Shown here: in pieces, positions 154 to 55,445 of the stretch | Layout of the letters: each line of letters opens with the position of its first letter | Numbering within the stretch: the first letter of the stretch is position 1 | NCBI GenBank assembly: GCA_016928235.1 | Contig: JAFGLD010000036.1 | Span: 3,646-67,645 of the forward strand | Direction of reading: 5' to 3' | Origin: Anaerolineae bacterium | Lineage (GTDB): Bacteria; Chloroflexota; Anaerolineae; Aggregatilineales; UBA3940 | Length of the DNA stretch: 64,000 bases | Notes under the pieces: generated by a model | The model's input: only the letters and a program-made list of their open reading frames with translations | The model's database searches: none | What the model was told of the DNA's origin: nothing | Program-made: the position numbers and the translations under genes

Positions 154-166
154 CAACGAATTGTAA

Positions 167-4551: not shown

Positions 4552-4925
4552 TGATTGTCGATGACGACAAACTGACAGTCAGCCTGTTGAAGACTCTTTT
4601 GGAACTAGATGGCTTTGAGGTGGTTTCGGTTGCCGAAGGCACAACAGCATATCAGCGGGCACGGGAAGATCCGCCGGATGCTTTCCTGGTAGATTATCAC
4701 CTGTCTGACGGAGAAGGAACTGATTTTGTTGTTCAGATGCGCGCTGACCCGGATCTATATCAACTACCAGTTGTGATGACTTCAGGCCTAAACCGCGAAG
4801 ATGAAGCGATGCAGGCGGGGGCAGACTGGTTCCTGATTAAGCCCTTTGATCCTTCTGATTTGGTCGATGTTTTTCAGAGACTGCTGGAGAGCACTGTTGA
4901 TGGTGAGGAAGAAGATTCCTGGTAA
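4536..4925 (+). CDS. single-domain response regulator (CheY-like receiver)
   Basis: MIVDDD acidic pair, FLVDYHLSD phospho-acceptor, MTSG and LIKPF lysine. The start overlaps the lon stop (GTG 4536 after GAGAGGA, or ATG 4551 within TAATG). Confidence 0.85.
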
Positions 4926-4982
4926 GGTTGATCGTGTGAAGCTATGGGATCGATTCCTTCTGAGAGGGAGGGTTAACAAAGC

Positions 4983-6710: not shown

Positions 6711-6716
6711 AACCGG

Positions 6717-7226
6717 GTGCGAGTGGGGATTCTGACAATCAGTGATCGGGCTTCCAGCCGTGAGTACGATGATCGGTCCGGCCCACTGATTGGCCACCTG
6801 CTCGAAGAGCGGCTGGGCTGGCAGGTTGCCGAGACAGGCATCGTCCCTGACGAGATAGCCGAGATCGAGAAGATACTGCTTGATTGGGTTGATGTTCGAT
6901 GCCTGAATGTGGTTTTCACCACCGGAGGAACGGGTTTTGCCCCGCGTGATGTGACCCCCGAAGCCACCCGATCTGTCATCGAGCGGGAAGCGCCGGGTCT
7001 GGCAGAGGCAATGCGCGCAGCCGGTCTGCGCGTGACCCCTCACGCAATGCTGTCTCGGGCGGTCTGTGGCATCCGTGCGCAAACGTTGGTTGTCAATTTA
7101 CCGGGAAGCCCCAAAGCGATCAGAGAGAATCTAGAGGTTCTGTTCCCCGTGCTGCCCCATGCGCTTGACCTGCTGAACGATAAGCCAGGTTCTGAGTCGG
7201 GACACCGATTTATTCGGCAGGTCTGA
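6717..7226 (+). CDS. mog: molybdopterin adenylyltransferase MogA
   Basis: VGILTISDRASSREYDDRSGP, TTGGTGFAPRDVTPEAT and NLPGSPKAIRE are collinear with E. coli MogA. GTG start. Confidence 0.85.
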   Translation: MRVGILTISDRASSREYDDRSGPLIGHLLEERLGWQVAETGIVPDEIAEIEKILLDWVDVRCLNVVFTTGGTGFAPRDVTPEATRSVIEREAPGLAEAMRAAGLRVTPHAMLSRAVCGIRAQTLVVNLPGSPKAIRENLEVLFPVLPHALDLLNDKPGSESGHRFIRQV

Positions 7227-7286
7227 GAGTTCTGGTAGTGTTCCCGGTCAGGCGCATAAATCCCCAATTCACAGAGGAATTTTATC

Positions 7287-9332
7287 ATGATGAAATGTCG
7301 GCTGTCGATAAAGCCGGGTATCCAGGCCAAGCTGGAATTGGTCGTGCTGGTGGTCATACTAATGCTGGCTGCAGGATTGCGGCTTGGCGCGCCGGCCATT
7401 GCTGAGTTTAAGAGGGATGAGGCCAATCTGTCTCGTCTGGCTCTGGATCTGGCTCGTGGACGCAGTGTGCCGCTGCTGGGGATCACTTCATCTGTGGGGG
7501 CGCCTAATCCACCTATCAGTGCCTATCTATTTGCCGTTCCATATTTGGTAGACGACAGTGGTGTCGCTGCGACGCTGTTTGTTGGGCTATTGAATGTAAT
7601 AGCCGTGATTTTGACATGGTGGCTTGCACGGCGAACATTCGGTGCAAGAGCAGCGGCAGTGGCAGGAATTCTCTACGCAGCCGGGCCGTGGGCCGTAATC
7701 TTTTCCCGCAAAATATGGGCCCAGGATCTGCTGCCGGTCTTTGTCGTGGCTACCGTCTTGACCGGCTTATCAGGTTTCAGAGAAGGCAAGCGATGGGCCA
7801 AGATCGCTCACTGGCCATTGTTGGTGCTGACGATGCAGATTCACTATGGAGCGTTCACGCTGTTTCCGCTCAGTTTGCTGATGATGTTTCTATGGCGAGA
7901 CAAAGAGCAAGGAAAGTCAACCAGGCGCTTTTGCCTGGAATTTGGCATTGGAGCGGGAATCGCGTTGCTAACCGCCGTGCCTGTGTTGCTTGGGGCGTAT
8001 CGAGCCGGGCTGTTCTCGTACACCGTAATTGATGAAGCTCTCAACCAGGGGGGCTCGTCGATGGTGATCGATGGCACAGCATTGCGCTATGCCTGGTTGT
8101 TGGTCAGCGGTATACATCTGCATGCATTGGCAGGCCCCGATCAGTTTCGCTATTACTTGACAACCGTGCCGGATGCGTACCCAATCTTCCAATTGATTCC
8201 ATTGGGAGCGGCATTATCAGCCGGGTGGGTGGTGTGGCAGAGGATCAATGGCGTCCTTAGTTACAAAGGGACGAGCCCGAATCAGACTAAACTGGACAGC
8301 GATGCGGTACCCTGCTGCCATGCGAATGTAGGAGACGAGGGTATCCTTCTGGTTGCTTGGCTGGCGCTGCCGATTTTGGCTTTTACCTGGCAGTGGACGC
8401 CTGTCCAGCTTCACTACCTTATTCCGATGATGCCTGCGGCGTACATCCTGTGTGGAATTGGCTTCGATGCCTTGTGCCGGTGGAGCAAATCGGTAGTAGC
8501 GAGTCGGATTATCATGTGTGTTGGTTGTATGGCAATGGGCACAATTGTGGTGTTGCAGGTGGTGATGTTTGTGGGGCTGATGCGTTTTCTGGATACACAC
8601 TATACTCCCGGCGGTTTTGGAACTCCATTACATCTGCTTTTGGATGTGCGTAATGCAATCTTAGAACGGTATCCGTCAGATGTGATAATTGTGAGTGAAG
8701 GAGAGATTCCTGACTATGATCAGGAACCTGCGGTTTGGAGCGTCCTGCTGGATCGGATTTCTGATGTTCGCGCGGTTGACGGCACTCGGACGGTTGTGGT
8801 TCCGGCTGAAGGAGCATTGGAGTTGGTGCTCCTTTCTGACAGCATTGAGGCTGGCCCTTTTGGAGATTATTGGGAGCGTAATGATGGAAGAGATGTCTTC
8901 CCGCAGCGACCTGGAGACAGCTCCTATCTGCTCCGGCCTATAGATGACTCATCGCTGGCCGTGCTGGTGGTGCCAATCGAGCCGGTCCGGTTTGCCAATG
9001 GCGTATGGTTGGTAGGGTACATCAGACAGGAACGTGCTTTAGCTCTGGTTTGGAAGCTTGATGGGGCGGCGACTCAGGATTATCAGGCTTTTATTCATCT
9101 GCAAGACATGGATGGGAACCGTATTGCTCAGGCAGATCGCCTCAGTTGGCCGGGGCGCTATTGGCGAGCAGGCGATACGCTGTATCTATGGTTCGATCTA
9201 GACGCTTTGCCGCAGGCAACCGCAATTTCTACCGGGATGTACTCGTTTGAAGGGGATGTTTATATCAATGTGGATGTCTTGGATGTGGCCGGCAACCCCG
9301 CCGGGCAGTCGATCACCATTCCCCTGGACTAG
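7287..9332 (+). CDS. GT-C fold membrane glycosyltransferase (GT39/ArnT-like) with a soluble C-terminal domain
   Basis: 681 aa with many hydrophobic helices in the first ~450 aa. An acidic DE motif lies in the first loop (FKRDEANL), as in GT-C enzymes. The last ~230 aa are hydrophilic. The family call is motif-based, not from a search. Confidence 0.6.
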   Translation: MMKCRLSIKPGIQAKLELVVLVVILMLAAGLRLGAPAIAEFKRDEANLSRLALDLARGRSVPLLGITSSVGAPNPPISAYLFAVPYLVDDSGVAATLFVGLLNVIAVILTWWLARRTFGARAAAVAGILYAAGPWAVIFSRKIWAQDLLPVFVVATVLTGLSGFREGKRWAKIAHWPLLVLTMQIHYGAFTLFPLSLLMMFLWRDKEQGKSTRRFCLEFGIGAGIALLTAVPVLLGAYRAGLFSYTVIDEALNQGGSSMVIDGTALRYAWLLVSGIHLHALAGPDQFRYYLTTVPDAYPIFQLIPLGAALSAGWVVWQRINGVLSYKGTSPNQTKLDSDAVPCCHANVGDEGILLVAWLALPILAFTWQWTPVQLHYLIPMMPAAYILCGIGFDALCRWSKSVVASRIIMCVGCMAMGTIVVLQVVMFVGLMRFLDTHYTPGGFGTPLHLLLDVRNAILERYPSDVIIVSEGEIPDYDQEPAVWSVLLDRISDVRAVDGTRTVVVPAEGALELVLLSDSIEAGPFGDYWERNDGRDVFPQRPGDSSYLLRPIDDSSLAVLVVPIEPVRFANGVWLVGYIRQERALALVWKLDGAATQDYQAFIHLQDMDGNRIAQADRLSWPGRYWRAGDTLYLWFDLDALPQATAISTGMYSFEGDVYINVDVLDVAGNPAGQSITIPLD

Positions 9333-9442
9333 CGTTTCGCGGCATAAGTAAGCTGTCGGTTATGGCCACATGCGAAACACTTAAACAGGTGGGCATGAAG
9401 GGCTTCTTTACTGCCAGGTTATTTCTGCCCAGCTGGACTAGT
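9333..9442 (+). repeat. structured intergenic repeat, copy 2 of 3
   Basis: Starts 1 nt after the TAG of the preceding gene. Shares the blocks CGTTTCGCGG..TAAGTAAGC..TATGGCCAC.TGCGAAACACTTAAACAG.TGGG..TATTTCTGCCCA.CTG.ACTAGT with copy 1. Confidence 0.85.
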
Positions 9443-9878
9443 ATTTTGCGACATGATTAAGCTCATAGATGACGTTAGGATACGAAAACACTCGGGTAGT
9501 TGGGCGGAGAAATCGACAAACAGGCCTTGGTTCTCTCGAATGCACGAAAAGATACCCTACTGTGAGGTAATCCCGATCTGCCTCAGCTCTACCCACCTGG
9601 AGGGGAGCGGGCGGTATGGGGTAGGGCGGGGTCGTGTGTGTGGCAGGTCTAATCATCCTCTGAGGCTACCATAATCATCTCGGCGTCATCCCTTATGATT
9701 CACGCATATTTCCGGTATGCCACATGGTGAGCGGTGTAAACGATCCCGTACCGGCGCAGGCTGGACTGTAGGCCTGCTGACGTCGCAGAACACGAGACTT
9801 GTCCAAAGATCGACTTCAGCTTACTATTCATGATGATGGGAGCTGGCTTTTATTCGGGCTCTTTTTAAGGAGAACACT

Positions 9879-11168
9879 ATGACCTCGTCCAGGCATCGTT
9901 GGGTGGTAGTTGTTGTCTTCTTTCTTTTCATGCTTCTGCATCAATCTGACAAATTCCTGATCGGACCGCTCACAACGCCTATCATGGAGACCTTTCAAAT
10001 CAGTGAGTCCCAGATGGGTGCCGTCTCGACCGGCGCGCTCCTGGTTGGCGCGATCCTCTACCCGGTCTGGGGCTATCTGTACGACCGTTATGCTCGTGTT
10101 AAATTGCTGGCATTGGCCTCTCTCATCTGGGGGTTGACCACCTCGCTCAATGCCAGCGCGCCTAATTACCTGACCTTTCTGGCTACCCGTGCCTCGACGG
10201 GGATTGACGATTCCAGCTATCCCGGCTTGCATAGCATTATCGCAGACTACTTCGGCCCTCAGGTGCGTGGCAAGATCTACGGGTTGCTTCAGCTTACTGG
10301 TCCATTGGGTTACTTGATAGGCATGGTGTTGGCTCTGGTGCTGGGTGGCATCATTGGCTGGCGCAACGTTTACTATATCACTGGTGGATTGGGAGTTCTG
10401 CTTGCGGCAGTGATTTTTGTGAGCGTGCGTGAGCCGCAGCGGGGCAGGAGTGAGCCGGAGCTGGCTCAACTGGCGGAAATTGGCGTCTACAAATTCGATA
10501 TGGATACTGCCAAGGGATTATTTCGTAAGCCAACACTGCTTCTCTTGTTTGTTCAGGGATTCTTTGGTGTCTTTCCCTGGCAGGTGATTGTTTACTGGAT
10601 ATTCCGCTATCTCGAAACGGAGCGAGGGTATACCAGTGATGAGATCCTATTGACTATGTCGACTGTAATTTTGATCTTGTCAGCCGGCTACTTCATCGGA
10701 GGTGCTGCTGGTGATGCAGCCTTCCGCCGCACGCCACGTGGGCGCATGGTTGTCTCGTCGATCGCGGTCTTGCTTGGCGCCATCTTCTTTTTCTTTGCAT
10801 TGAACACGCCGGTCGAGAATCGCCTGATGTTCTTTGTGTTCCTGTCGGCCACTGCCATCTTTATGCCCTTTTCCGCGCCGAATGTGATTTCATCGGTATA
10901 TGATATTACACTGCCGGAAGTGCGCAGCACGGCATTGGCCATCCAGCTTTTTATCGAGAACGCCGGCGCGGCTGCCGCGCCGTTGCTGGCGGGCATTATC
11001 GCCGAACACTATGATTTGAAGACAGCCTTTCTGGTGATTTGTGTTTCGACCTGGTTATTATGTACGATTTTCTACTCCGTCGGTGCCTATTTGGTGCCGC
11101 GCGATATCACGATATTGCGTGCCCAGATGCGCGAGCGTGCCGAACAGGAACAGGCGGGGCAACCCTGA
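9879..11168 (+). CDS. MFS transporter
   Basis: 429 aa with about 12 hydrophobic segments. MFS motif A-like loop GYLYDRYARVKLL lies between TM2 and TM3. A GGAG RBS precedes the ATG. Confidence 0.85.
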   Translation: MTSSRHRWVVVVVFFLFMLLHQSDKFLIGPLTTPIMETFQISESQMGAVSTGALLVGAILYPVWGYLYDRYARVKLLALASLIWGLTTSLNASAPNYLTFLATRASTGIDDSSYPGLHSIIADYFGPQVRGKIYGLLQLTGPLGYLIGMVLALVLGGIIGWRNVYYITGGLGVLLAAVIFVSVREPQRGRSEPELAQLAEIGVYKFDMDTAKGLFRKPTLLLLFVQGFFGVFPWQVIVYWIFRYLETERGYTSDEILLTMSTVILILSAGYFIGGAAGDAAFRRTPRGRMVVSSIAVLLGAIFFFFALNTPVENRLMFFVFLSATAIFMPFSAPNVISSVYDITLPEVRSTALAIQLFIENAGAAAAPLLAGIIAEHYDLKTAFLVICVSTWLLCTIFYSVGAYLVPRDITILRAQMRERAEQEQAGQP

Positions 11169-11440
11169 TAGTATAGTGAGTTTGTCGATGTGATCAATTG
11201 GGCGATGTCTCTACCTTGCACTCTGCTGGGGCAGGATGATAGACTGTTGGTGCTATGCACCAAAGGTGGTGGTGCGCTTTGCTTTGTCCTCGCTATAAAC
11301 CTGGTAGGAGATATGGCGTCACTTTGAACGGGGTTGCCTGAGCGGGGACGTCGAAGCGTGGGCCCCTGATCTTGCACGGTGTATGAAGGAAATTTCAACG
11401 GACCTGTGAGAAGAGGCGCCGGAAACGACGATCCTCTAAC

Positions 11441-12277
11441 ATGACGGTGCTTGGGGGGGGGATCCTGATCCCCCTGTGTTTTATGCAACTGCTTCTACCG
11501 GAAGTGCGTATTGTAATGTATGGTAGTACAGCCAATCAATGTGTGTCAAACAGAAAATTGAAAGCTGACCGCTTGTTTGCAAGAGAGGAAGTGAGTATTG
11601 TGAGCGACCAGGACAACAAAAAAAACGATATCAGCCCGTCTCCATGGGGTTCTGACCCTATCCGGGGTCTCAATTACGATTATCTGGATATCGATAAACC
11701 GCCGTCGATTGAGCCGAAACCGGTGATGCCGGAGCGCACTACCAGATTCAATGCGATCCAGGCTCAAGATTTCTACCAGCGTATTCGAGGCAAGTTGGTT
11801 ACCTGGGCGCAGGGGGCAGGCGCGGGCAAGGAGGCGACTAACTACATTCTGCTGATCCCGGATATCATGGCGCTTTTTGTCCGGCTGATGGGCGACCCGC
11901 GCGTTTCCGGCGCGCTCAAGGCGGAAATCGCCGCTGCTTCGGCTTATGTGATCAGCCCTATTGATCTCATGCCGGAGGCAGTTATGGGCCCGGCAGGGCT
12001 CATCGATGATGCAATTGTGGCGGTGATTGCTCTCAATCGCGTCGTTGCAGCGATGGGACAGGCAGGCGAGGATGTTTTGCGCCAATATTGGGATGGCGAT
12101 CAAGACATTCTGGTTGTCATCAAGGATCTGTTGACCCGGGCCGATAGCTTTGTGAGTGGCACGGTCTGGACCGGGATCAAAAAGTTTGTGCGTGATACAG
12201 TTGCGGAGAAGCCGTCGGAGGGGCAGATCATCGAAGGAAAAGCTCGTCCCATCGAAAAGCCGCGTTTCGATAAGTAA
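11441..12277 (+). CDS. DUF1232 (YkvA-like) domain protein
   Basis: LLIPDIMALFVRLMGDPRVSGALKAEIAAASAYVISPIDLMPEAVMGPAGLIDDAIV is the DUF1232 pattern. The likely true start is GTG 11591 or 11600, after GAGAGGAAG. Confidence 0.65.
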   Translation: MTVLGGGILIPLCFMQLLLPEVRIVMYGSTANQCVSNRKLKADRLFAREEVSIVSDQDNKKNDISPSPWGSDPIRGLNYDYLDIDKPPSIEPKPVMPERTTRFNAIQAQDFYQRIRGKLVTWAQGAGAGKEATNYILLIPDIMALFVRLMGDPRVSGALKAEIAAASAYVISPIDLMPEAVMGPAGLIDDAIVAVIALNRVVAAMGQAGEDVLRQYWDGDQDILVVIKDLLTRADSFVSGTVWTGIKKFVRDTVAEKPSEGQIIEGKARPIEKPRFDK

Positions 12278-12304
12278 GGTGTGCCCTCTCAACCCGCGCT
12301 AGAA

Positions 12305-13234
12305 TTATCGAAACGCATCCTCGAAGAATGCTACGATCCGCTCCTTGTATTCCTCTGGCGCGACCTCTTGGTATTGGCCGTGCTCGGCTCGTGCCACGAT
12401 CCATAGATCCTTGGGGGCCCTTGCGGAATCGTAGAGCACCTGGCCGGATTCGGCCTCGTACTCGCCGTAGATCAATAAAATGGGCCGTGGGCCGATTTTA
12501 TCGATCACGCTGACAGGGCTACTTTCCCAGGCCGGTATACCCAATTGCAGGCTGGTAAACAGCAAGATAAATCGCCTTATTGTCCATCCTAATGCGCCAT
12601 GTCTGATAGCGGGATCGAGGATATCCTCTGCCAGGTTTTCGTAACCGCCTATGGCCACAATGGCTTCTAGTGCCGGTTCCTGAGCCGTGGCCAGGATCGA
12701 TGCGGTGCCACCCTCGGAAAATCCCAATGTGCCAATGTGTTCAACATCTGAGCGATTGGTCAGGTAGTCTACTGCTCCCAGAAGATCGTAGGCTTCGTAG
12801 TAACCGGTGCTGGCAGCCAACGATGGATTTGCACAGGAGCGGTGCTCGTAGATCAGCGTGCTGAAACCTGCCTCCGCCATGATAGTTGCATTGGGAATGG
12901 CAAGCGCGGAATTGCCGGCATGACCCGGCACGGCGATGATCACTGTCTCCGGGTATTTATCCCCTGCCGTATACCATCCTCGTAAAACTGGCCCGTTTCG
13001 CGATGGAAAAACAACCGGTTCTGACGCAAACCCGACGACCTCCAGGCTATCTCGATTGCCCTGGCATCCTGGGTGTAGCATCGCTGATGTGTAAAGCCAG
13101 GATGAACCCACAATGAGCAGAATTAGCGCGGTTGCAGTACCCGTCAGACTCAATCGCAGGATGCGCTTCCAACAGAATTGGAAGCGGGTAGTTACCAGGC
13201 TGTCTGATTGCCGCGGCTGGTGTCTTGTTGTCAT
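12305..13234 (-). CDS. alpha/beta hydrolase (dienelactone hydrolase/BAAT-like), membrane anchored
   Basis: N-terminal hydrophobic anchor, nucleophile elbow GFSEGG, and late D/H residues (IVARAEHGQ). Confidence 0.75.
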   Translation of the reverse strand: MTTRHQPRQSDSLVTTRFQFCWKRILRLSLTGTATALILLIVGSSWLYTSAMLHPGCQGNRDSLEVVGFASEPVVFPSRNGPVLRGWYTAGDKYPETVIIAVPGHAGNSALAIPNATIMAEAGFSTLIYEHRSCANPSLAASTGYYEAYDLLGAVDYLTNRSDVEHIGTLGFSEGGTASILATAQEPALEAIVAIGGYENLAEDILDPAIRHGALGWTIRRFILLFTSLQLGIPAWESSPVSVIDKIGPRPILLIYGEYEAESGQVLYDSARAPKDLWIVARAEHGQYQEVAPEEYKERIVAFFEDAFR

Positions 13235-13247
13235 GTTTGCTGATCTC

Positions 13248-14567
13248 TCATTTTTCGAACTGCTCCGCCAGCAAATCGACCAATGTTGGCGAGCCGATAG
13301 GCTGGAGGGTGTAGCGTACGCGCTCTATGGGCTTCGCGATGTTGATCGCGCGGCGCAAATCGATCGGCGTGGCGATGATGACCAGCTCAGCATTTGATGC
13401 ATCGATGGTCTTTTCCAGATCAGATATCTGTTTGCGCCCATAGCCCATGGCGGGAAGCACAGCGCCGGTGTTCGGATATTGGTGATAGACTTCACGTATT
13501 GAGCCCACGGCAAATGGGCGCGGGTCGACGATTTCAGCAGCGCCAAATCGCCGGGCCGCGACCACACCGGCGCCATAAGCCATCTCGCCGTGTGTGAGCG
13601 TCGGCCCATCTTCGACGACCAGCACGCGTTTGCCCCGGATATCCTGCGGGTGATCGACAAAGATTGGTGAGGCAGCCTCGATCACAACTGCTCGCGGATT
13701 GGCGTTCTGGATATTTGCTCGTACAGCCAGGATATTGGGATAATCGGCCGTGTCAACTTTGTTGATCACGACTACATCGGCCATTCGTAGGTTAACCTCG
13801 CCGGGGTGGTAGCGGATCTCATGTCCAGGGCGATGTGGATCGGTGACCACGATGTGCATATCAGACACCAGGAAAGGGAGATCGTTGTTGCCGCCATCCC
13901 ACAGAATGATGTCAGCCTCCTGCTCAGCCTGCCGCAAGATTGCCTCATAATCGACGCCTGCATAGACGATCACGCCGTGGTCGATATGCGGCTCATATTC
14001 TTCGCGCTCTTCAATGGTGCATTCGTGCTGGTCGAGATCGTCGTAGGCCGCGAATCGCTGCACAGCCTGGCTGGCCAGGTCGCCGTAAGGCATCGGGTGC
14101 CGGATGGCAACTACCCGATAGTCCATTGCCTGCAATGCCGAGGCAACGTGACGGGTTGTCTGGCTCTTGCCACTCCCTGTCCGCGTAGCGCTGATCGACA
14201 CAACGGGCTTGCTGCTTTTGATTTGTGTGGTATGGGGCCCCATCAGCCGGAAGTCTGCGCCGGCTGCCAGCGCCTGGGAAGCTTTGTGCATGACGGTCTC
14301 GTGAGAGACATCGCTGTAGGCAAAAACCACCTGTTCGACGCGGTGCTCTCGGATCAGCCGTGTCAACTCGCTTTCTTCGTAAATGGGAACGCCCTGAGGA
14401 TAGAGATCCCCAGACAAAGCCGGCGGGTACGTGCGGCCATCGATGCCTGGTATCTGCGTTGCCGTAAAGGCCACCACCTCGAATTGTTCGTTGCCGCGGA
14501 AAAAGACGTTGAAATTGTGGAAGTCGCGCCCGGCGGCTCCCATGATCAATACACGAGTGCGAGCCAT
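13248..14567 (-). CDS. cyclic 2,3-diphosphoglycerate synthetase-like P-loop protein (COG2403-type predicted GTPase)
   Basis: 439 aa. N-terminus RVLIMGAAGRDFHNFNVFFR, P-loop-like ATRTGSGKSQTT. The overall layout resembles the archaeal cPGS family, recalled from memory. Confidence 0.65.
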   Translation of the reverse strand: MARTRVLIMGAAGRDFHNFNVFFRGNEQFEVVAFTATQIPGIDGRTYPPALSGDLYPQGVPIYEESELTRLIREHRVEQVVFAYSDVSHETVMHKASQALAAGADFRLMGPHTTQIKSSKPVVSISATRTGSGKSQTTRHVASALQAMDYRVVAIRHPMPYGDLASQAVQRFAAYDDLDQHECTIEEREEYEPHIDHGVIVYAGVDYEAILRQAEQEADIILWDGGNNDLPFLVSDMHIVVTDPHRPGHEIRYHPGEVNLRMADVVVINKVDTADYPNILAVRANIQNANPRAVVIEAASPIFVDHPQDIRGKRVLVVEDGPTLTHGEMAYGAGVVAARRFGAAEIVDPRPFAVGSIREVYHQYPNTGAVLPAMGYGRKQISDLEKTIDASNAELVIIATPIDLRRAINIAKPIERVRYTLQPIGSPTLVDLLAEQFEK

Positions 14568-14993
14568 AGAGTGTCCTTTGGAAATAGTGCTGGGGATCGA
14601 GTTTTGGGTACTGAGACAAAGGCCATTGGTTTACCTCTGTCGGGATCATAATCTTGATGATTGTGTTTAGACTTACCCATCTTGATTGCAGGCTCTGCGA
14701 GGAAAGCTATTGAATCCCCATTCTTTAGGAACGAGAATTTATTAACTTACACATAGTCCTTATTGCAAGCTCAACTGCAATACCTTTGCCAACGATTTTA
14801 GCGGCAGTATCAATTCACAACAAGAATGACGTTAGAGTGGGTAGCGGTAAACTCTATGCGCAAGTCGAGAAACTCGGCAGGTGTGCAGACAGGTTTCACA
14901 CATTTCTGTTGGCGGCAACGTGGCGATGATCGAAATATCAGACGCGCGAGATTGTCTTCCGTGGAATGTCACACCCCGATGCTCAGATGCGTC

Positions 14994-41788: not shown

Positions 41789-43528
41789 ATGACAAAAGAG
41801 AACAGATCGATAAAGCTGGGGCTCTTTGGGCTATGGGGAGCCTGGTTGATTATATTGGTATATGTCTCCGTCCTGCTCATTCTGGGCTTGCCAGGATACC
41901 ACCAACTTCTAATCAACATTGTCTCAGGGCCAATGAAGCTGCCGTTGTCTGTAGTATATTACGTGCTAGGGTGGGATCTGATCACGACTGTTCCCTTCTA
42001 CGTCATGGCTATTCTGTTATTCTGGCGCAAAATGGAGGATTACTTTGCGCTCTTTGTCTCAATGACCCTTATTGTGTATGGTGTTGGTTTTAGTTCGTAT
42101 ATCTACCGGCCTGAGCTGTATGTTGGTATCTTCACCTCACCTCTCAACATCTACATGGTGGGGATACCACAGATGCTTGGGCTCAGCCTCAGTGTATCGA
42201 CTCTCTTTCTCTTTCCGACCGGCACCTTTATGCCCCGCTGGACGCGCTGGCTGGCGATTGGATGGACAATCTGGGTAATTGGGGGGATGTTTATTCCTTC
42301 ATTCTTCCTCAACAACCTGCCATCTCCTTTGATTACATGCATAAAGTTGTGTGCTTATGTCGCCGGCATTGCGGCGCAGGTCTACCGCTATCATCACATC
42401 TCGACACCGATTGAGCGCCAGCAGACCAAATGGGTGATTTGGGGCTGCTCGATTACAGTTATTGGGTTCCTTGTTTCTGATCTTATCTGTCTGGTGGTTC
42501 CCATGGAAGCATCTTTGCTAAGCACAGTCGGCTATCTGCTCATTGTCACTCCTTGCGATCATATCCCTCGTGTTTTACTTGCGCTCTCCATCGGGCTTGC
42601 CATTCTACGTTACCATCTGTGGGACATTGATTTCTTTATCAACCGCTCGCTGGTCTATGGTGGTGTAACCCTTTTTCTGGGGGCCCTATTCGCCGGAATG
42701 TTTGCGACAATGCAGGCGTTGATGGAGATGGTGCTGACGAACATATCCGATGTCGTAACCGGAACTGTTTCCACTATGGTGGTCGTCGCTTTGTTCTTCC
42801 CAGTACGAGATCGTTTGCAGTGCCTGGTAGACAGCCGGTTCTATGGTGTTAGCCACAGACATGAGCGAGAAGTGCAGATCGCCATTGCACAGGAGCGCGA
42901 CCGTATGGCTCGGGATCTGCATGACTCGGTGACCCAATCGTTATATGGCCTGACACTGCTGGCTGAAAGCTGGCGGCGATTGGCTCAAGATGGGCGAGTT
43001 AATAACCTGGAAGAACCATTGATTGAGATTGGTGATGTTGCCCAACAGGCACTCAAGGAGATGCGCTTGCTGATCTACGAGATGCGTTCTCCAGTGTTGG
43101 AACAAGAGGGGCTACTAAGTGCCCTACACCAGCGTCTGGCTGCGGTGGAGAAGAGAGCGGGTGTAGAAGCGGAACTGTCAGCGGAAGCAATAGTTGAGAT
43201 GTCTGCCGCAATAGAAGAAACCCTTTATTTTGTGGCCACCGAAGCGCTCAACAATGCCATCAAATATGCGGAAGCATCCTCAGTTACGGTGGCTTTGCGC
43301 GCTGATGACAAATGGGTGGTAATGGAAATAACGGATAACGGCAAAGGTTATGAGCCAGGCATGGGCGGGAGCAATGGAGGAATGGGGCTGGACAGTATGC
43401 GTAGGCGGCTGGAAGGAGTAGGGGGGACACTTACCATTCACTCTGCGCCAGGCCAGGGAACAAAGGTCACGGCGAGAGTATGGTATCAAGCGGATTCTCG
43501 TAGGCAGAAGGCAAAGGTGAGGCTATGA
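41789..43528 (+). CDS. sensor histidine kinase (HisKA_3/NarL-type) with large multi-pass membrane sensor region
   Basis: About 330 aa of hydrophobic helices. H-box ERDRMARDLHDSVTQSL, N-box EALNNAIKYA, G-boxes DNGKGY and GMGLDSMRRR. Confidence 0.88.
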   Translation: MTKENRSIKLGLFGLWGAWLIILVYVSVLLILGLPGYHQLLINIVSGPMKLPLSVVYYVLGWDLITTVPFYVMAILLFWRKMEDYFALFVSMTLIVYGVGFSSYIYRPELYVGIFTSPLNIYMVGIPQMLGLSLSVSTLFLFPTGTFMPRWTRWLAIGWTIWVIGGMFIPSFFLNNLPSPLITCIKLCAYVAGIAAQVYRYHHISTPIERQQTKWVIWGCSITVIGFLVSDLICLVVPMEASLLSTVGYLLIVTPCDHIPRVLLALSIGLAILRYHLWDIDFFINRSLVYGGVTLFLGALFAGMFATMQALMEMVLTNISDVVTGTVSTMVVVALFFPVRDRLQCLVDSRFYGVSHRHEREVQIAIAQERDRMARDLHDSVTQSLYGLTLLAESWRRLAQDGRVNNLEEPLIEIGDVAQQALKEMRLLIYEMRSPVLEQEGLLSALHQRLAAVEKRAGVEAELSAEAIVEMSAAIEETLYFVATEALNNAIKYAEASSVTVALRADDKWVVMEITDNGKGYEPGMGGSNGGMGLDSMRRRLEGVGGTLTIHSAPGQGTKVTARVWYQADSRRQKAKVRL

Positions 43529-44181
43529 CAAAGATTATTCGTGTTCTAATTGCAGATGATCATCCGGTTGTACGCAAGGGGCTATCGGCTCTAATCCGCG
43601 GCGAGTCTGATATGGTAGTAGTTGGTGAGGCAGCTGATGGGAGAGAGGCTATCCAATTGGCGCAATCTCTCCAGCCCGATGTGTTGTTGCTGGATCTGGT
43701 GATGCCCCAGATGGGCGGCCTTGAGGTTATTTTACAGCTCAAGGCAGAGGAGCAGAGTGTGCACATCCTGGTCTTGACGAGCTTTGGTGAAGATGACCAG
43801 ATCTATGCGGCCATCAAAGCCGGCGCCATGGGTTATCTTCTGAAAGACGCCTCACCAGAACGGTTGCTTCAATCTATCCGGGATATCGCTCAAGGCGAAG
43901 TGTCGCTGGATCCAACCATTGCATTGAAGCTCGTAAGGGAGATTCATCATCCAGTTGAGTATCCGCCAACCGATGCATTGCTGACGGAGCGAGAGATGGA
44001 GATACTGAAGCTGATAGCGCGTGGTCTGACCAACCAGGAGATGGCTGAGAGTTTGACCATCAGCGAACGTACGGTTGCCAACCACATCAGCGGCATCTTG
44101 GGCAAACTGCATCTGGCCAATCGTACTCAGGCGGCCTTGTACGCGCTGCGACAGGGGTTGGTCAGTCTGGAGATCTCCTGA
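43525..44181 (+). CDS. NarL/LuxR family response regulator
   Basis: ATGA overlap with the kinase gene. IRVLIADDHPVV, LLLDLVMP, LTSF and LLKD receiver residues, followed by the LuxR HTH LTEREMEILKLIARGLTNQEMAESLTISERTVANHI. Confidence 0.93.
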   Translation: MTKIIRVLIADDHPVVRKGLSALIRGESDMVVVGEAADGREAIQLAQSLQPDVLLLDLVMPQMGGLEVILQLKAEEQSVHILVLTSFGEDDQIYAAIKAGAMGYLLKDASPERLLQSIRDIAQGEVSLDPTIALKLVREIHHPVEYPPTDALLTEREMEILKLIARGLTNQEMAESLTISERTVANHISGILGKLHLANRTQAALYALRQGLVSLEIS

Positions 44182-44839: not shown

Positions 44840-45005
44840 TGTGTCTGTAGTCCAGTTCCTAATCTGCTCAACGACTGCCAGGATATCGTGACAAAAACCC
44901 TGTCAATTATCACCAATCATGCTGTTTATTTCTCACGAAAGATAGGCTTGATACTCAGACTGAGGTCTCAGAATGTTTAGGGTTAGCTCAGGAGGAAATA
45001 GGATC

Positions 45006-48000
45006 ATGAATATGCGACTGTCCAGAATCTTCATCTGCAAAGTACTCGGCATTTGTTTGTGCATCGGATTACTCATCACGACACCCGGTGTGTCGATGGC
45101 AGCTTTATCACAGCAGACTCCCAACACCTGCGAATTGTATCCCATTGTGATACCGGCAGCTCTACTGGTTGAGGCGAAAGAGGGTGATACTCTCCCAGAG
45201 CTTGCCAACGGCATCGAGGAGGGTGATTTCGGCTGGCTCACCTGGACGGCAAATCCGGATGAAGCAGCGCTGATCGCCAGCCTGACGCCGCCGGGTGACA
45301 GCGATACCTACGTCAACCCGCTCGATGCAGACGATAAGATGCTCTCCCAAGGCGATTGGGCCATGGGCAACCCGGCTCTATCAGACAACGAGGCAGCACA
45401 TGCGGCACTTGATGAACTCAAGGCGGTTGATATCTCGGTGCCGGTTTGGGATTCGGCAGGCGAGCAGGATGGCTATACCGGCTATCAGATCAGCGCCTTC
45501 GCGCGCGTAAGGCTGCTCGATTACCACCTGGGCGACGAGAACCGCATCTCGGTACAGTTTCTGGGCTACACTTGCCAGGATACCACAAGCCAGAATGCGT
45601 CTATCGAGCTGAGCCAGACGGTAGATTCGGCTACTGTGCCTCCCACACCCAATGTGGATTTTACTGTGAGCCAGGATAATGTGCTTCCGGGTGATGAGCT
45701 GACTTACACCACCACGGTGACCAACACCATGACCACCTTGCTGATCTCCGGCACACTGAGAGTAACCAACACCGGCAGCAGTCCGGCTACCATCGCCTAC
45801 TACAGTGACGTGGTTGAATATCAGGCAGCCGGATCTCCTGATTGGGTTGCTCTGGCGGGAACGGCCTCGGTCTTGCCAGATTATTCTCCCATATCGGCTG
45901 CCTCAACAACTTCGGGGATGCTCCTCTCCACAACCGGCATCCCGTCTGATGGTGTCACCTATGCAACCGGCAGCGACGCCATCGTTGGCACCAGCATCGC
46001 GGCAGGCAGCACTGCCTCCTGGACCTATCAGGCAATTGTCACATTGAATGCTGAACAGGTCAGCCGGTTCTTAACTCCCGGCGCCTTTGAAGATCTCCGC
46101 AACAGCATTCTCTTCGAGATCGGCCCAGACGCGGCGGAGCCTGGGCAGCCATTCACGCAGAGCACATCGGTACTCAATGTCCTCGAAGCACAGTCAGGCG
46201 ATCTGACCGATGTGCGTCTGACGTTAACAATGCCGGATGGCAAAGCCGTTACCGTCAATGCTGCTGCCAATCCCGATCTGACCGAAATCGCGCCAGGCGG
46301 CTCGGTTGCTGTGAAAACACCCTATGCAATCCCAGCAATTGCAGCCAGAGAAAAGAATGAGTCAGTCGAGGCATATCTTGCACGGCTTGAAGCGGCTGAT
46401 GAGGCTCTTCTGACAGCTATGGTCGATGTGGCGGCCGGAAGTGATGATGCCGCAGTGATGGTTCCTCAACAAACCGTTTCTGCTGTCCAACATCTCCCCA
46501 TCCTGACAATGGTTATAACCAAACCTGAAAACACACAAGAAGCAGCTGCGGCAGCCTATAACCTGACCCTTACCAATACCGGTTCTGCGCCTGCCGGCAA
46601 ACTGGAGATCACCGGACAACGGACGGATGGCACCGCCATCACAATTAACGATATCCCGAACACACTCGATCCGGGCGCTACGGCTGTTGCTCATATCCCG
46701 CACTCGGCATCGCTCAATCAATTAGCCGATGATTTGGCGAGCGCTATCACACTCACATGGCAAGATACCGGTGGCGCCAGTTATGGCCCGGTCGAGGCAA
46801 CTACTGGTGAACCAAGGGAGAAAATTGCGTTAGCGGATGAGGCGGCAGCTGCTGATGGAGAGACAACGCCCTTCGACTTCGAGTTTGAGAATTGGGAAGC
46901 ACCCCGTTTGCCCAGCCTGAAGGATTTTCAAGTTTCGCAGTTTACAGGAGCAGCCACCTATTCTTATCCTATTCAGGTTCCTCCTGGCCCAGGCGGATTA
47001 CAACCATCGCTGGCACTATCTTACAGCAGCCAGGTTGTCGATAACGCCAGCGGCATGACCCAGGCTTCCTGGGTGGGCATGGGGTGGTCGATGGAAACCG
47101 GCGCCATCGAGCGCAATCTGCATGGCACGATGGATTTTAGAGATGATGATACCTTCTCATTGAATGTCAACGGCATCAGCGGTTTGCTGCTGCTGGAGAG
47201 CAGCACTGGAAGCATCGAGAATTACCAGATGGCCAATGAGAGCTTCATGCGTATTCAGCGCGATACCAGTACTGACATCTGGACCGTGTGGGACAAAACA
47301 GGTACCCAGTACTTCTTCGGTGAACAGGCTGCGTTGCCAAATAATAACCGGGCACAATATCATGCCTGCAATCCTGAGGAACCGGTCACCTGGAAGTGGG
47401 CGCTCTCCCGGGTGCGTAACAATTTTGGACAGGAGTTGATCTACATCAACAGAACCGATGAACCAACGCGGCTCACCGAACTATGTGATCAGCCTGTATC
47501 ACCCGATGCCTATGGCGTAGACAATGCCATCTATCCGGAGTACATTCTCTATCGTTTCAGTGACGGCACTTATAGTCCATACCGTATCGAGTTTGTCAGG
47601 CAAGAAGATATGCCTATACATGATATCTATCATCGGGGCGATTGGGAACACGAGTGGTACTATGGCAAAAACCCTCAATACTTCTTTGAGCGGTCACGGC
47701 TAAAAGAAATCCAGATACAGCACGATGCTGATAACAACAATACATACGAGCAAATCATACGTAAGTATGTGCTGACCTATGCCAACGATAACGATCCGTC
47801 TATCGAAAATACTCCCATCTTCCCGAACTATACCTGGTCGAAGGGTGGCAAAACGCTGACTTTAATGAAAATCCAGGAGTATGGATTTGGCGGAGCCACA
47901 TCGCTGCCCCCTACGATTTTTAACTACGGCGATGGCATCACCCATGGCGATGCCATGCACCTGGAGTGGGCTACCAATGGTTATGGCGGAAAGGTATCTT

Positions 48001-51000
48001 TTACCTATGACAAATGGAGCGATACTACCAGCTCGGATAACAGCAAATTCGAACAGGATTTCACCTTGCTTTGTCCCTCCTCGGAAGGCGGTTGGGGCGG
48101 AGATTGCGATGAGCAGCAGTACTTACCAATACATGATTTGAGCAGTCGCCTTATTCCTGTCGGCCTGTTCCATCCCGGCGGACGTTACGAGCTGCACGCT
48201 GAACTGTCGGCGCATCCCTTATCGGCAGGGACAACCGTTCAGATAGGCCTTACCGGAGCAGCAAATAAGCCTGAACCGGCTGTGGCCCTATCGCCGGGGA
48301 AAAGCACAACCCTGGAGGAGGTTTTTGATCTGTCGTCGACAGTAGATAATCAGGCTCGGTGGAGTGTAACATGTGAAGACTGCTCCATGACTCTCTTCCG
48401 TGCTCGTTGGCTGCCCACCTACTATCGGGTGACGGCTAAAACGATCACCGATGCAATAACCGGCGCATCATCCACACTCACCTATCGCTATGACGAGCCG
48501 GCCACCAACGATCCGGAGCACTCTGCTTATGTTGATGGCATTCGTAAAGACAATGGCACATTGGATTTCGCCAAACAGTATACCCAGGCTTACAGCGAGT
48601 TCCGCGGCCATGGCATGGTGGAAGAGATTGCCCCGGACGGGTTGGTCAACGCGACCTTTTTCTATCAGGATGACGAGTTTAGGGGTAACACTGCTGCCAC
48701 AGTGACCCATACACGGGAGATGACAGAGCCATTCAACTCCTTGGATGAAAATCTATGGCATCGGAGTGCCGGCACTGAAGACCTTATCAATGTTGAGCGT
48801 CTCAACGGCGACTCTGCTCTCAGAATCCAGGGTTCCCCTGAAGGCAATTGGGTGAGCGTTACTCGATGGCAAGGCGACGCCGGCGCTCATACGATCGGTA
48901 ACGGCGAGTTTGCGATGCTCCAGTTTCGCCGGGGAGAAGTAACTGAGAATGACCAGATCAATCTGACGTTGCAACATGGGGATTGGGACCAACCCGAGTA
49001 TCGACGGTGGGGGTTCTCGATCCTCAGTGATGGGGCTGCCAATGCCGAAATATGCCAGTGGGACGACAAGATAAATGAGTCTGAATGCCATAGCGACGGG
49101 AGCCTCATGAACATTGAGCAGGACAAATGGTATGTCCTGCTGATAGGAATAGATAATGAGCAGTTCATGGTTCGCGTCTGGCAGCGCGATGATCCGGCGC
49201 AGTACGCGGAACACTATCGCGCTTTTACGGGCAGCGAGTGGAGAGACCAAAATTGGCAGTTCATGGCCCAGGTCAAAAACGCGACCATCTGGCTGGATGA
49301 ATACAATGAGAGCCGTCTGTATTCGCTGAACGAGACACTCTATGAAGCGGACACCGAGAAGATGCTCTGCCTCAAGATAGTAAATGATGGCGGGGAGTTC
49401 TGTCTGTCAAAGACCTGGGCCTACCCGATCCAGTCCAGAAGCTATGCCTTCGAAGGCGATGCCGAGTGGGTTGGAAAGAGCACCTACTACAAACACGAAG
49501 CGAAATACCAGGATAATGCTCAGTACGGCAACCAGACCCAGGTGATCGAGTCTTCCTGGAATTGGGACAATAGGGCTTTTCAAGATCATCGTGTGAGCTG
49601 GACGGCATACCACCCCAATGCGGCAGGCGATACTTACCTGGTGGGATTGCCGGGTCATACCAACACCTATGAATGCCCTGCCGGATCTCAGAACGGCTCG
49701 TGCTATGAGGCTATTGATGCATTGTTGAACAATGCCGGTAATTGGGCGCAAGACTATATCCTATCTTCTCACTGGTATCTCTATGACGATGCATTCTACG
49801 TTCATCGAGACGAGAACTTCGCCACGCCGCCGACGATCGGTCATCTGACCGGTGAGCGTGACCTCCTGCGCTATGTTGGAGAGGGCTTTAACGACCGCCG
49901 GTACCGTGACACAGAATATGCCTATGACGACTACGGCAACCGGATAACCGTCACAACCTGGACGGGTGAGGGGACGTTTGACGAGCCTGCCACAGCAGGC
50001 ATCCAAAACGTTTATAGTTGCTACGGTGGAGGTGAAACAGTTGGTGAGGAAGCATGCCAGGTAGACCATTATCACACCTATGCTCTGTGGACCAAAAATG
50101 ACTTGGGGCAGAAGACGATACTTGGTTATTCCGGTATCGCTGTTCCGGGAACAGATGCCACAGGATACTCGTTGGGGGTGCCGGTCAGCCGGCAGGATCC
50201 TAACGAGGCTGCTAATGAGGTCATGACCCGGGTCACCTATGATAGCTTTGGGCGGCTCAGGAAAGTCATCAAGCCGGGCGAGAATGATGATGCTCCGACC
50301 AACCAGATTGTTTACTATGATGCTTACCCGGGCGGGAGTGATCCTGTGCCGTTGATGGTGGAAATGTGGCAGAGAGTTGAAGGCACAGACTACTACAGCC
50401 AGCGCAAGTTCTATAACGGGCTTGGGCAGCTCATCCAGGCACAAACAACGCGCGTGAATGTGGGAGCCGATCTGCAAGATGTGATTGTCGACTATCAGTA
50501 CGATGACAACGGTCGTCTTATTAAGCAGACGGTGCCCTATGCTATTGGCGCATGGACAAGCTGGGGTTCCAGCCCTACCCCCTGGCGTGGGCAAGCTATC
50601 GACGGACACGAGGTCACCACGACTTCGTATGACGATCTGGGACGCCCGGAGCAAGTCACGGCGCCCGATCTGACGGTAACCGGGTATGAGTATGGTGATT
50701 TGTATACCACCGTTACCGATCCGCGCGGTACCCACACCACCAGCTATTCCGACATCTGGGGGCGGACTACTCTGGTGGAGGCCCTTGAAGGGGCAAACGT
50801 GCGCTACCATTATGACGTCGCCGACCGCCTGGTGAGGGTTGACCAACTGTCGACAGGTCCTTTAGCAAAAATGATTACAACTACATTGAGCTACGATCTG
50901 GCCGGGCGAAAGATCGAGATGAACGATCCCGATATGGGTGTCTGGTCTTACAGCTACGATGCTCTTGGTAATCTGAGCTATCAGGATGATGCAAAGGGCC

Positions 51001-54000
51001 AGCGTGTTTGCCTGTATTACGACAATCTCAACCGGCTGAGCGGTAAGCGATATGCCAACAGCGGCGATGTCTGTCCGGTTGTTCCTGACTCCTACACCGT
51101 CGAATATGTCTACGATAATATAGCGGGCGGAAACAACGGCATCGGACGGCGTACCGGTATGATCTATAGCTCCGGCAAGACCAGTTGGACGTACGATGTG
51201 CGTGGACGGGTCACCAGCGAGGTTCACGATCTGACCCAATTTGGTCCGGAGGAGCCCTATACCATCAGCTATACCTATAATCGGGCAGATCAACCGGTAA
51301 CTGTTACCTACCCTGATGGGGAGATCGTCACGACCACCTACGACAATCAAATGCGCCCCATCGATTTGAGCAGCTCGTTGAACGTCGAGTATGCGAGCGA
51401 TGCCTTGTTCGATGTGTTTGGTCGTCTTTATGACCTGACGGCCGGCAATGGCCTGCATACCCGGTACAGTTTCTACAAGCCCAGTATACAGGGTGGCAGG
51501 CTCGAAAACCTGACTGTCGGCGATGACTTGCTCAACCTCACCTATCACTATGATGCCATTGGAAACATCGAGGGGCTGGAAGATGATTCTCATGTTATTG
51601 GTGGCCAGAAAACCAAATATGAGTACGACAAGCTCAATCGCTTGATGAGTGCCGTCTCCGATGGTGGGCCTACGGGGGCTTATACTCAAAAATTTGCTTA
51701 TGACGATCTGGGCCGGCTAAATGCCAAGACAACAGACGGGCAGACCCTGGATTATACATATCCCGGCTGGTCTGAGCCGCATCCCCATGCAGCCACCGGG
51801 ATGGGAGAAGATAACCGGTATGAGTATGATGCCAACGGCAACATGGTCACACGCACCGAAAACGGGATCGAATATACCCAGGCCTGGACGGTAGAAAACA
51901 AGCTTGAACAGGTTAACTGGGTCAAGAATGGTGAAGCTTACGAGACTCGTTATGTTTATGATGGCGATGGTAATCGCATTGCGCAGATCGAGAGAGTTTC
52001 CGGTTCGGAAGCGGATCGAAAATGGAATCGCATCACTGTCTATGTTGGCGGCATCTATGAAGAGGTCTTCGAGGAGGCTGGGCCAGGACTAAGCCCGATT
52101 GATGACTCTGATGATGGGAAAGACGATAACATTCTGCCTATAGATCCACCGACCAGGACGAATATCGATATCGAGGATATTGATGTTGACAATGCCTTAG
52201 ACGATCGGACGATAGGTGCAGATGAACCGGTGGGGCTATCTCAGAATGCCGGGGAGGAGAGGCTCGAAGATCCATCGAGTGGCTTGAATGATATCTGGGA
52301 TTGGTTTACCGATCTGCTCAAGATGCCCGGACAGAAGGCTGTGGGCATTGCGAGGCCGGCAGCCCCGCCCAGTGAGGCACCCGAAGAGCAAGCCCTGAGC
52401 CCACTTCTGGCGGCTACTACCCGTACGTGGACAAGCAAAGCTGACTTCCTAACCGGATATCTCCTTGACAGAGTCGACGTCTACGACCTGGACGGCAGCA
52501 TGCGTTTGTTCACTTACAACGACAACTTTAGCGACAACGAGTTGAATCCTGCTCGTTATACTGTCAGCTCTAGTTCGTTAGTTGAGCAAAACTCTCGCGC
52601 GGAGCGCCCGGCGTCGACAACCAACCGTTCCCTGGCTTTCAAGAACCTGACACTGTCAGGAGACTTCGACATTCAAGTCGACTATGGTATGTTGGCCTAC
52701 ACCAACGTTGATGTAGGGCCACGCCTGGGCATGAGTTTGACATGCCAAAACTCAAACTATCTCAGCTTTGCATTTGCGGCGAATTACTACCCCAGCTCCA
52801 GTTATCGCCAATATCGAATCGAGGGAATTTTCAGAGGGTGGGAAGATGATGGTAATCGAAGGCTGGATTTCCAGAGCGACGATTCTTCATACGATAAGGG
52901 TTCATTACGTATTGTCCGGACTGGGACAACATGGGAATTCTATTACAAGCGTTCAGGCGATGCCGGCTTCACATTCCTGGGCAAGCGTACAGAAAACGAA
53001 TTGGGTACAGGGGCTTATGGTAATTGCTCGTTATCCTTGAACTCTACACAGTGGTACAAACCTGCCGATCCGCCAACTCCTAACAAAGCATATGCGGCTT
53101 ACTTTGATAACTTCTTGCTTTCAAAGAATAATGGACATACCAACCCCTATACCAGCATTGGTACCTGGCGTGCCGAGGTCGATGGCGGCAAGAGCTGGGT
53201 AGCCTGGCAAAGCTTCAATTTGATCGGCTCTTGGGGTGGCTCGACCGGTTTCATCATCAGCGGACGTTCTTGTACAGGAGCAAACGGAACTGGTACGTGT
53301 GCCCCCTGGTATGCTATACCCAATCCGACGGCCTCGAATAACTGGCCGGCTTCAGTAGGAAATTACCGTTACTTTCAGGTAGAAGTGCTGCTGTCCGGTG
53401 GCGCATCGACACCCCAGATGGATGAAATCCGCCTGAACTACAACCCGGATACCGTTTCGCCGTCCAACCCGATCCCCCCAGCGATTGAGACACATGGCGC
53501 CAAAGATAACGCTTGGCAGAACAGTGCATCAACGCCATCTTTTACCTGGACCGCCTCATCAGACTCGGGTAGCGGAATAGCTAAATACAATATCTACTGG
53601 GGTACAGGTAACTACTCAGATAATCCACCGACTACCCATACGAGCACATCACCCAGCTTCACCGCTCCGAGCGCGGTTGCCAGCGGCAGCACTTACTATC
53701 TGTGGGTGCAGGCAGAAGATAAGGTCCTGAATAAATCAGGTTGGAAGAAGATGTTCACCTTCCGCTATGAAACCACGCTGCCATCTAATCCGATACCCCC
53801 AGCTACTGAGACACATGGGGCTAAAAATAATGTCTGGCAGAACAGTATATCGACACCGTCTTTCACCTGGACAGCATCGACGGACACATACAGCGGGATG
53901 GCCGGATATAACATCTATTGGGGAACAGGTAACTACTCGGATAATCCACCGACTACCCATACGAGCACATCACCCGGTTTCACCGCTCCGAGCGCGGTTG

Positions 54001-55445: not shown

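Follow-up and report, generated by a model that had tools for sequence, protein, structure and literature searches.

A five-domain array inserted at a hairpin turn of a bacterial RHS toxin shell, a candidate surface-ligand-binding arm

Folded domains within the shells of RHS proteins have been described before: Zhang et al. (2012) reported lectin domains embedded among RHS repeats (PMC3482391), and the cryo-electron microscopy structure of SGS1 has a CBM (carbohydrate-binding module), a lectin CRD (carbohydrate-recognition domain) and a C-proximal wedge domain inserted in its Rhs/YD shell (PMC9935623). The shells of the Rhs effectors from type VI secretion systems (T6SS) are described as smooth and undecorated (bioRxiv 10.1101/2024.02.26.582050). 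Here we analyse a giant RHS/YD toxin of an Anaerolineae bacterium (Chloroflexota) that carries a large insert in its shell. The toxin gene (44973..55445, + strand) is a single unbroken open reading frame (ORF) of 3490 aa and lies within a stretch of 64,000 nucleotides of contig JAFGLD010000036.1 (assembly GCA_016928235.1, positions 3,646 to 67,645), called the window in the following; all coordinates refer to the window unless a different contig is named. The insert comprises 785 residues (aa 2369-3153) and consists of an acidic linker, a two-part head and three Fn3 modules. Overall, we consider it probable that it is a genuine inherited array which sits in a hairpin of the RHS wall, outside of the shell, and acts as a surface-ligand-binding arm.

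The initial annotation, made from the DNA letters of the window, had described the segment as a receptor-binding appendage between two strands that only a short turn separates in ordinary RHS proteins, and had placed these strands at about 52030-52075 and from about 54435; both positions are correct to within 3 nucleotides (52026-52076; 54432-54476). The last shell strand before the insert, NRITVYVGGIYEEVFEE (52026..52076, + strand; aa 2352-2368), corresponds in the alignments to the Y[IV]G..YE strand that about 60 homologues have. The shell resumes behind the insert with the strands GVTKYYYLGGQRVAMRTSEGVFYLNGDHLGSTS… (54432..54572, + strand; aa 3154-3200), which start with GVTKYYYLGGQRVAM (aa 3154-3168, nt 54432-54476) and align to the homologues' KYYY.G..R[IV]A…DHLGS as well as to SGS4, TccC3 and YenC2 of the PDB. 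Between VYVGGIYEE (aa 2358-2365) and KYYYLGGQRVAM (aa 3156-3167) there are 790 residues in one ORF. The insertion hairpin precedes the Rhs-associated core domain by 47 aa (two hairpins).

To gather relatives, a search was made with the part of the shell that lies upstream of the insert; it gave 791 matches at E<=1e-10, with 120 of them listed. The upstream and downstream flanks were then joined to a spliced query and aligned to 124 RHS relatives. Both anchor strands are present in 64 of these, and their spacing is usually 6-15 aa with a median of 7, consistent with the short turn that the initial annotation had stated for ordinary RHS proteins: 47 proteins have 6-8 aa and 12 have 9-15 aa. Spacings of 2, 20 (P0121) and 42 aa (P0039) occur in one protein each, and one alignment was mis-anchored and returned a negative value. 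The sole large spacing, 756 aa, belongs to P0001, a protein that bears the same insert. In the solved structure of VgrG-Rhs (8QJA), residues 1709 to 1754 (45 aa) correspond to the 815 aa between residues 2343 and 3158 of the window protein. Since about 60 homologues have these two strands side by side, and 8QJA agrees, the alignments confirm that the segment is a true multi-domain insertion at a hairpin turn of a single shell; the alternative that the modules lie between two independent RHS segments was rejected from the alignments and from the conservation of the arrangement. P0039 (aa ~437-480) and P0121 have their modest expansions, of 42 and 20 aa, at the identical hairpin turn. Judged from the alignments, insertions may be tolerated at this turn more generally.

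Two further, independent assemblies carry this array, again at the same hairpin. P0001 is a partial protein of 1531 aa from a Chloroflexi metagenome-assembled genome (MAG; GCA_016178315.1, locus L001) with 32% identity over 99% of the region and has the order AYIGQLYEE, insert, KYYLLGNQRVAMR…DHLGS; its stalk differs and consists of an Fn3, an Ig-like and a further Fn3 module (read by eye from sequence and alignment). The other example, L003, is a 135-kb contig (ENA ERZ25072999) assembled from long reads at about 5x coverage. Here, TLYIGGIYEE is followed by a low-complexity linker, the head (P0128), about six Ig/Fn3 modules, the resuming strand VTKYYVHGGTKVAMR…DHLGS (also given as KYYVHGGTKVAMR…DHLGS), DPTGH and an unrelated C-terminus. 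The giant gene of L003 (positions 1-14893 of that contig) is split by at least three frameshifts and its upstream pieces have PKD and Laminin_G_3 domains rather than SpvB, indicating that the insert is conserved across differing N-terminal architectures. Stalk length and composition, as far as can be read from these sequences, are variable between relatives.

Identity of P0001 and L003 to the window protein depends on the region: it is 59-64% in the core, 42-44% in the shell and 29-37% in the head, and there is none in the linker and in the toxin. This gradient fits an insertion that would be old and vertically inherited, in which evolution was fastest in the exposed parts and toxins were swapped. 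The regions after the DPxGH motif are also mutually dissimilar among the three proteins, and unrelated toxins despite similar cores are as expected for a polymorphic toxin.

That the segment is an assembly chimera, or that an RHS shell fragment and an orphan core-toxin cassette were read as one although they are adjacent genes, is extremely improbable. It is true that the relatives are MAG or metagenome sequences, that the source is apparently uncultured, that RHS loci are prone to recombination and that short orphan core-toxin fragments are common. However, one open frame runs over both junctions, the GC content is flat across the insert region, and the same junction strands and architecture recur at 29-44% identity in the two further assemblies, of which one is from long reads; misassembly was rejected on the basis of this conservation and of the alignments. 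There are also no flanking direct or inverted repeats that would suggest recent mobility, with only the Fn3 tandem repeat (see below) and a weak 22-nt inverted pair being detectable. A scan of genome contigs returned a single fragment of 1.8 kb (L002, uninformative) and a scan of metagenome contigs returned nothing. On L002, which comes from an Anaerolineae MAG, an RHS-like ORF abuts the middle of a ConA-like head domain that is in another reading frame (positions 999-1837 of that contig); this junction is either left over from a recombination or a chimera of short reads.

How does this arrangement compare with the known systems? Like the window protein, SGS1 and SGS4 (8FJP, 9ON3) are giant (~3,400 aa) single-chain Rhs/YD cocoons with exterior domains that are encoded within the YD repeats; the Rhs core is homologous (E 1e-10 to 2e-9) and the SGS inserts are read as receptor- or glycan-binding. 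There are, however, several differences. SGS1 is an insect protein (mosquito salivary gland) whereas the window protein is bacterial. The inserts of SGS1 are single domains at other positions, while the window protein has a five-domain array with a long linker, and the SGS1 wedge (2225-2465) ends about 145 aa before the hairpin that is equivalent to the window site (about residue 2610 by the alignment). In a phmmer search, the window insert has no significant sequence similarity to any PDB chain, hence it matches neither SGS1 nor SGS4. In the toxins of Zhang et al. (2012), the embedded domains are RicinB, discoidin and bulb-lectin, and Laminin-G is N-terminal (PMC3482391); no insert was mapped to a specific hairpin, and the study predates the shell structures.

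The Tc BC cocoons (TcdB2-TccC3, YenB-YenC2) share with the window protein the SpvB N-terminus, the large YD cocoon, the autoprotease motif of the Rhs core and a variable toxin, which is presumably encapsulated in the window protein too; the shell of TcB likewise carries an inserted folded domain, a beta-propeller. This propeller is the gate, lies at the shell's opposite end and has TcA, not a cell-surface ligand, as its binding partner. Moreover, the Tc cocoon is made of two chains and the window protein of one, and the window has no gene for a TcA-sized partner (there is no second ORF of >900 aa in its 64 kb). The window protein itself has only a weak match to the propeller-containing mid-region of TcB (TcdB_toxin_midN, E=0.11, 12.3 bits with a cut-off of 24.8). 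The Rhs effectors of the T6SS (RhsA 7Q97, Tse5 8CP6, VgrG-Rhs 8QJA) have a homologous shell and core with a C-terminal conserved region that seals one end. PAAR, VgrG or prePAAR features were not seen in the 3490-aa protein and there is no T6SS component in the window.

The arrangement had initially been regarded as undescribed, and this was too strong, as the principle of inserting binding domains in YD shells is already known from SGS1 and from Zhang et al. (2012). What appears to be new is the hairpin site, the array size and the domain composition: the literature searched contains no description of this hairpin as an insertion site that is conserved in three diverged proteins, and none of a five-domain, ~85-kDa array at an RHS shell or of the longer version of L003. 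Likewise, the head unit is in no curated family and is not described in the literature searched. The earlier interpretation is thus partly supported: right for the structure, plausible, albeit inferred, for the function, and too strong for the novelty.

The insert starts with an acidic, Pro-rich linker of 114 aa (52077..52418, + strand; aa 2369-2482) that contains 26 acidic residues (18 D and 8 E) and 13 prolines. BLAST detects no similarity between the linker and its counterparts in P0001 or L003, and the linker is probably disordered; the portion of it that was modelled by AlphaFold2 (AF2) has a predicted local distance difference test score (pLDDT) <50. The first part of the head (52419..53138, + strand; aa 2483-2722) opens with conserved N-terminal strands (TW.S..DF…D.YD.DG.L.L), which are followed by a ConA-like lectin/glucanase jelly roll, and has two conserved cysteines at positions 2591 and 2685. 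The AF2 model of the ConA-like domain, built from a six-sequence alignment, has pLDDT values of 70-87, and Foldseek matched it to PDB structures with a probability of 1.0, E values of 1.5e-6 to 1e-4 and a target-normalised template modelling (TM) score of up to 0.58. Its neighbours are the C-terminal sandwich of GH43 enzymes, CBM2 of the phage J-1 Dit protein (5LY8), GH16, PL7 and legume lectins; among viral structures (BFVD), phage tail proteins were matched. Pfam searches identified no curated LamG family (PF13385, PF02210 and the like) in the insert, only a sub-threshold match to DUF1583_C (E=0.029). The initial label 'LamG-like' is, judging from the model, correct for the fold and not for the family.

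The match to 5LY8, the second-best for this domain, offers a further parallel. In the 'evolved' Dit proteins of Lactobacillus and Lactococcus phages, a carbohydrate-binding jelly roll (CBM2 in J-1) is likewise placed in a loop of a large structural protein and adds binding to the host surface. The baseplate scaffold is however unrelated to RHS shells, there is just a single module and the identity is 16% only.

The second part of the head (53139..53441, + strand; aa 2723-2823) is a beta-rich subdomain of about 100 aa with YRYFQVEVLLSGGASTPQMDEIRLNY at its end. It has 21 invariant columns across five sequences, including the invariant cysteine pair 2767/2776, and is predicted to be all-beta (AF2 pLDDT 50-70). 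No Pfam or PDB family was matched, also not when it was used as a profile against the PDB. The four cysteines of the insert are thus two conserved pairs.

Three Fn3 modules complete the insert: module 1 (53442..53768, + strand; aa 2824-2932), module 2 (53769..54089, + strand; aa 2933-3039; AF2 pLDDT 78.5) and module 3 (54090..54431, + strand; aa 3040-3153), the latter with a Gly/Ser-rich end that leads into the shell. Module 2 is 81% identical to module 1 and 52% identical to module 3; module 3 is 41% identical to one Fn3 module of L003. Modules 1 and 2 are a 321-nt tandem duplication (53459-54090) with 82% identity on DNA and 81% on protein level, and this duplication is recent. A profile of the Fn3 modules matches the Fn3 domains of titin, chitinase A1 and EphA2 in the PDB (E 8e-7 to 3e-5), and Foldseek aligns the AF2 model to Fn3 domains with a TMq of 0.6-0.69. 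In single-sequence searches, the Pfam match of the Fn3 region was below threshold (Ig_Rha78A_N, E=0.003), Pfam and NCBIfam searches with the insert pieces returned only matches below threshold, and phmmer against PDB sequences found nothing significant (best E=0.14). Composition, AF2 models, Foldseek and profile evidence together show that the modules named in the initial annotation (acidic linker, LamG/ConA-like domain, beta domain, three Fn3 modules) were essentially right.

Word-indexed searches with the whole region or with the head profile gave very few relatives, and an exhaustive HMMER search over 1.84 billion cluster representatives was needed to define the distribution of the head unit. 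Among these representatives, only 14 proteins match at E<=1e-3 and six at E<=1e-10. Beyond the window protein and the RHS-borne copies and fragments, the best matches are P0126 and P0127. Both start with a Pkinase domain at the N-terminus, continue with a hydrophobic segment that spans the membrane and a linker rich in Pro/Thr, and end with a complete head unit at the C-terminus; P0126 additionally has an SH3_3 domain. The C-terminal parts of these two proteins look, from their sequences, like a sensor ectodomain family without prior characterisation. More distant ConA-like relatives of the head are secreted or PEP-CTERM proteins. Its reuse beyond the membrane segment of Ser/Thr kinases, together with these secreted relatives, marks the head unit as what is, by its sequence context, a rare and portable extracytoplasmic module.

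The fold itself leaves room for an enzyme. The ConA-like domain could be a GH16- or PL7-like glycan cleaver that erodes the capsule, sheath or wall of the target to give access to the membrane, and GH16 glucanases/xyloglucanases and PL7 alginate lyases (E 1e-5 to 1e-4) as well as phage tail-associated hydrolases are indeed among its structural neighbours. Sequence identity to these neighbours is however low (7-16%), no Pfam glycoside-hydrolase or lyase family is matched, the domain has one invariant acidic residue and an ExDxxE-type strand motif is not visible by eye. CBMs and lectins without catalytic function (5LY8, legume lectins) are among the top matches as well, and the presence of the head in kinase ectodomains better suits sensing or binding. 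We therefore consider catalysis very unlikely.

The position of the array relative to the shell can be deduced from its size. The insert has a mass of 85.4 kDa and a computed volume of ~103 nm3, while the lumens of Rhs and BC shells are about 25-37 nm3 (bioRxiv 10.1101/2024.02.26.582050) and must also hold the 24-kDa toxin; the teneurin shell has a lumen of 130 nm3 in total (PMC5851990). We infer that the array is outside of the shell. The polypeptide chain would exit the wall after VYVGGIYEE through the flexible acidic linker of ~114 aa, fold as the two-part head of ConA-like jelly roll and small disulfide-bearing beta domain, and return to the wall via the stalk of three Fn3 modules, with the shell resuming at KYYYLGGQRVAM. 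As both ends of the insert must meet at one hairpin, the simplest geometry would be a rigid Fn3 stalk that rises from the wall, with the ConA-like head at its tip and the acidic linker running back.

In the published structures, the conserved C-terminal region spirals inward and seals one end of the cocoon (PMC8765631; PMC5851990), and by its proximity to the core the array would be located at this closed pole. Such a position raises the possibility that the arm is a trigger: binding of a ligand, or a pull on the arm, might be transmitted via the flanking strands to the C-terminal seal, open the cocoon and free the cleaved toxin. The insertion site is at the same hairpin in three diverged proteins and close to the sealing core, toxin release from RhsA is proposed to require mechanical force (PMC8765631), and the window offers neither a T6SS nor a TcA partner gene as the source of such a force. 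This reasoning is positional only, however. RhsA and Tc toxins exit at the opposite, N-terminal or propeller end (PMC8765631), force would be passed on poorly by the long flexible linker at one of the two sides, and conservation of the site could be explained by a single insertion event. A trigger is therefore very improbable; if it were true, a normally closed pole would open and release would be opposite to the route of all RHS cocoons studied so far.

For the array as a surface-ligand-binding arm, we propose that the head binds an extracellular ligand, probably a cell-surface glycan, and that the bound arm would hold the loaded toxin container against the target cell or the envelope of the producer itself. 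It would thus give a Sec-exported RHS toxin, with neither a T6SS spike nor a TcA gene in the window, a receptor-binding arm of its own. The fold class, the conserved cysteine pairs and the reuse of the head as the extracellular part of kinases make glycan or ligand binding the most likely function. Several points weigh against this interpretation. Only three RHS examples of the array are available, of which one is partial and one is frameshifted. The model of the head is of moderate quality (mean pLDDT 62.6), with the second subdomain poorly modelled. The analysis of the head revealed neither a ligand nor a sugar-binding motif nor a conserved binding site, and enzymes with the ConA-like fold (GH16, PL7, GH43 accessory domain) are among the top structural matches. 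The location at the closed pole is derived only from the sequence distance to the core and from published descriptions, and the sequence is compatible with an arm that faces the target cell as well as with one that faces the producer's own surface.

The latter point leads to another explanation: the arm could tie the container to the wall, S-layer or sheath polysaccharide of the producer, as a self-anchor for the display of contact-dependent inhibition, with no role in target recognition. Laminin-G and SH3 domains have been proposed as producer-wall anchors in polymorphic toxins of the type II secretion system (T2SS)/Sec type (Zhang et al. 2012, PMC3482391), Pfam and NCBIfam scans found no other recognisable wall anchor in the 3490-aa protein, and Ser/Thr kinases of the cell itself carry the head unit, in one case beside an SH3_3 domain. 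On the other hand, the anchors of the T2SS/Sec-type toxins of that study are N-terminal (PMC3482391), and the N-terminal 650 aa of the window protein, with DUF11-type repeats, could already be a surface-attachment region. Self-anchoring is possible but unlikely and, like glycan cleavage and a mechanical trigger, is less supported than the binding of a surface ligand by the arm.

The remainder of the 3490-aa protein has the layout of a hydrophobic, signal-peptide-like N-terminus, DUF11-type repeats (TIGR01451 match), and an SpvB domain (aa 657-836; PF03534 at 35.2 bits, cut-off 22), after which come the YD shell with the insert, then the Rhs core and finally the toxin at the C-terminus. Multiple YD/RHS repeats were detected (PF05593, E=3.3e-19; TIGR01643, E=6.8e-17), and aa 1804-1860 match DUF6443. 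The Rhs-associated core domain (54573..54806, + strand; aa 3201-3278), which is the plug and bears the autoprotease motif, is matched by TIGR03696 over the full length (1-76/76) at 67.1 bits (cut-off 32.5) and ends with DPTGH; DPxGH is the usual form of the cleavage motif in this clade (32 of 37 members). The variable C-terminal toxin domain (54807..55442, + strand; aa 3279-3490; 212 aa, 23.9 kDa) has no Pfam match. The closest shell homologues, among the matches listed, are from Anaerolineae and Chloroflexi MAGs. By its domain matches, the protein is an RHS polymorphic toxin of the Sec type whose N-terminal half resembles TcB.

Cysteines after the signal peptide are nearly all in close pairs (1034/1045, 1134/1137, 1361/1372, 1466/1477, 1568/1577 and 1683/1695, further 2013/2034, 2591/2685, 2767/2776, 3280/3292 and 3311/3321), some of them in the toxin domain. 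This pairing suggests a disulfide-stapled extracellular protein and is consistent with an oxidising, extracellular location. The shell region also contains a non-YD stretch that looks beta-rich (~48840-49470, aa ~1290-1500; containing …ENLWHRSAGTEDLINVERLNGDSALRIQG…) and which, from its appearance, could be a second shell decoration. This stretch has no Pfam or PDB sequence match. The mid-shell segment of aa ~1243-1543 was considered as a second copy of the ConA-like head and rejected, as there is no similarity to the head and no PDB match.

Directly upstream of the toxin gene and on the same strand are genes for a sensor kinase (HisKA_3) and a response regulator of the LuxR family (41789-44181), which may control the toxin gene. 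The region downstream of the toxin (55446-57320) has no obvious immunity gene and contains small unannotated ORFs only, one of which (56083-56286) encodes a hydrophobic product of 67 aa.

The data extend the 'decorated shell' of mosquito SGS1 to free-living bacteria. The hairpin before the core accepts loops of 6 to about 1,000 residues, and such a tolerant site is relevant to the engineering of RHS or Tc cocoons as delivery containers. That the head is shared with the ectodomains of Ser/Thr kinases suggests that Chloroflexi have an extracellular recognition module which has so far not been characterised. For Sec-exported RHS toxins that lack a T6SS spike or a TcA injector, target finding and entry are poorly understood, and the conserved modular binding arm would provide a concrete and testable handle on how these toxins find their targets.

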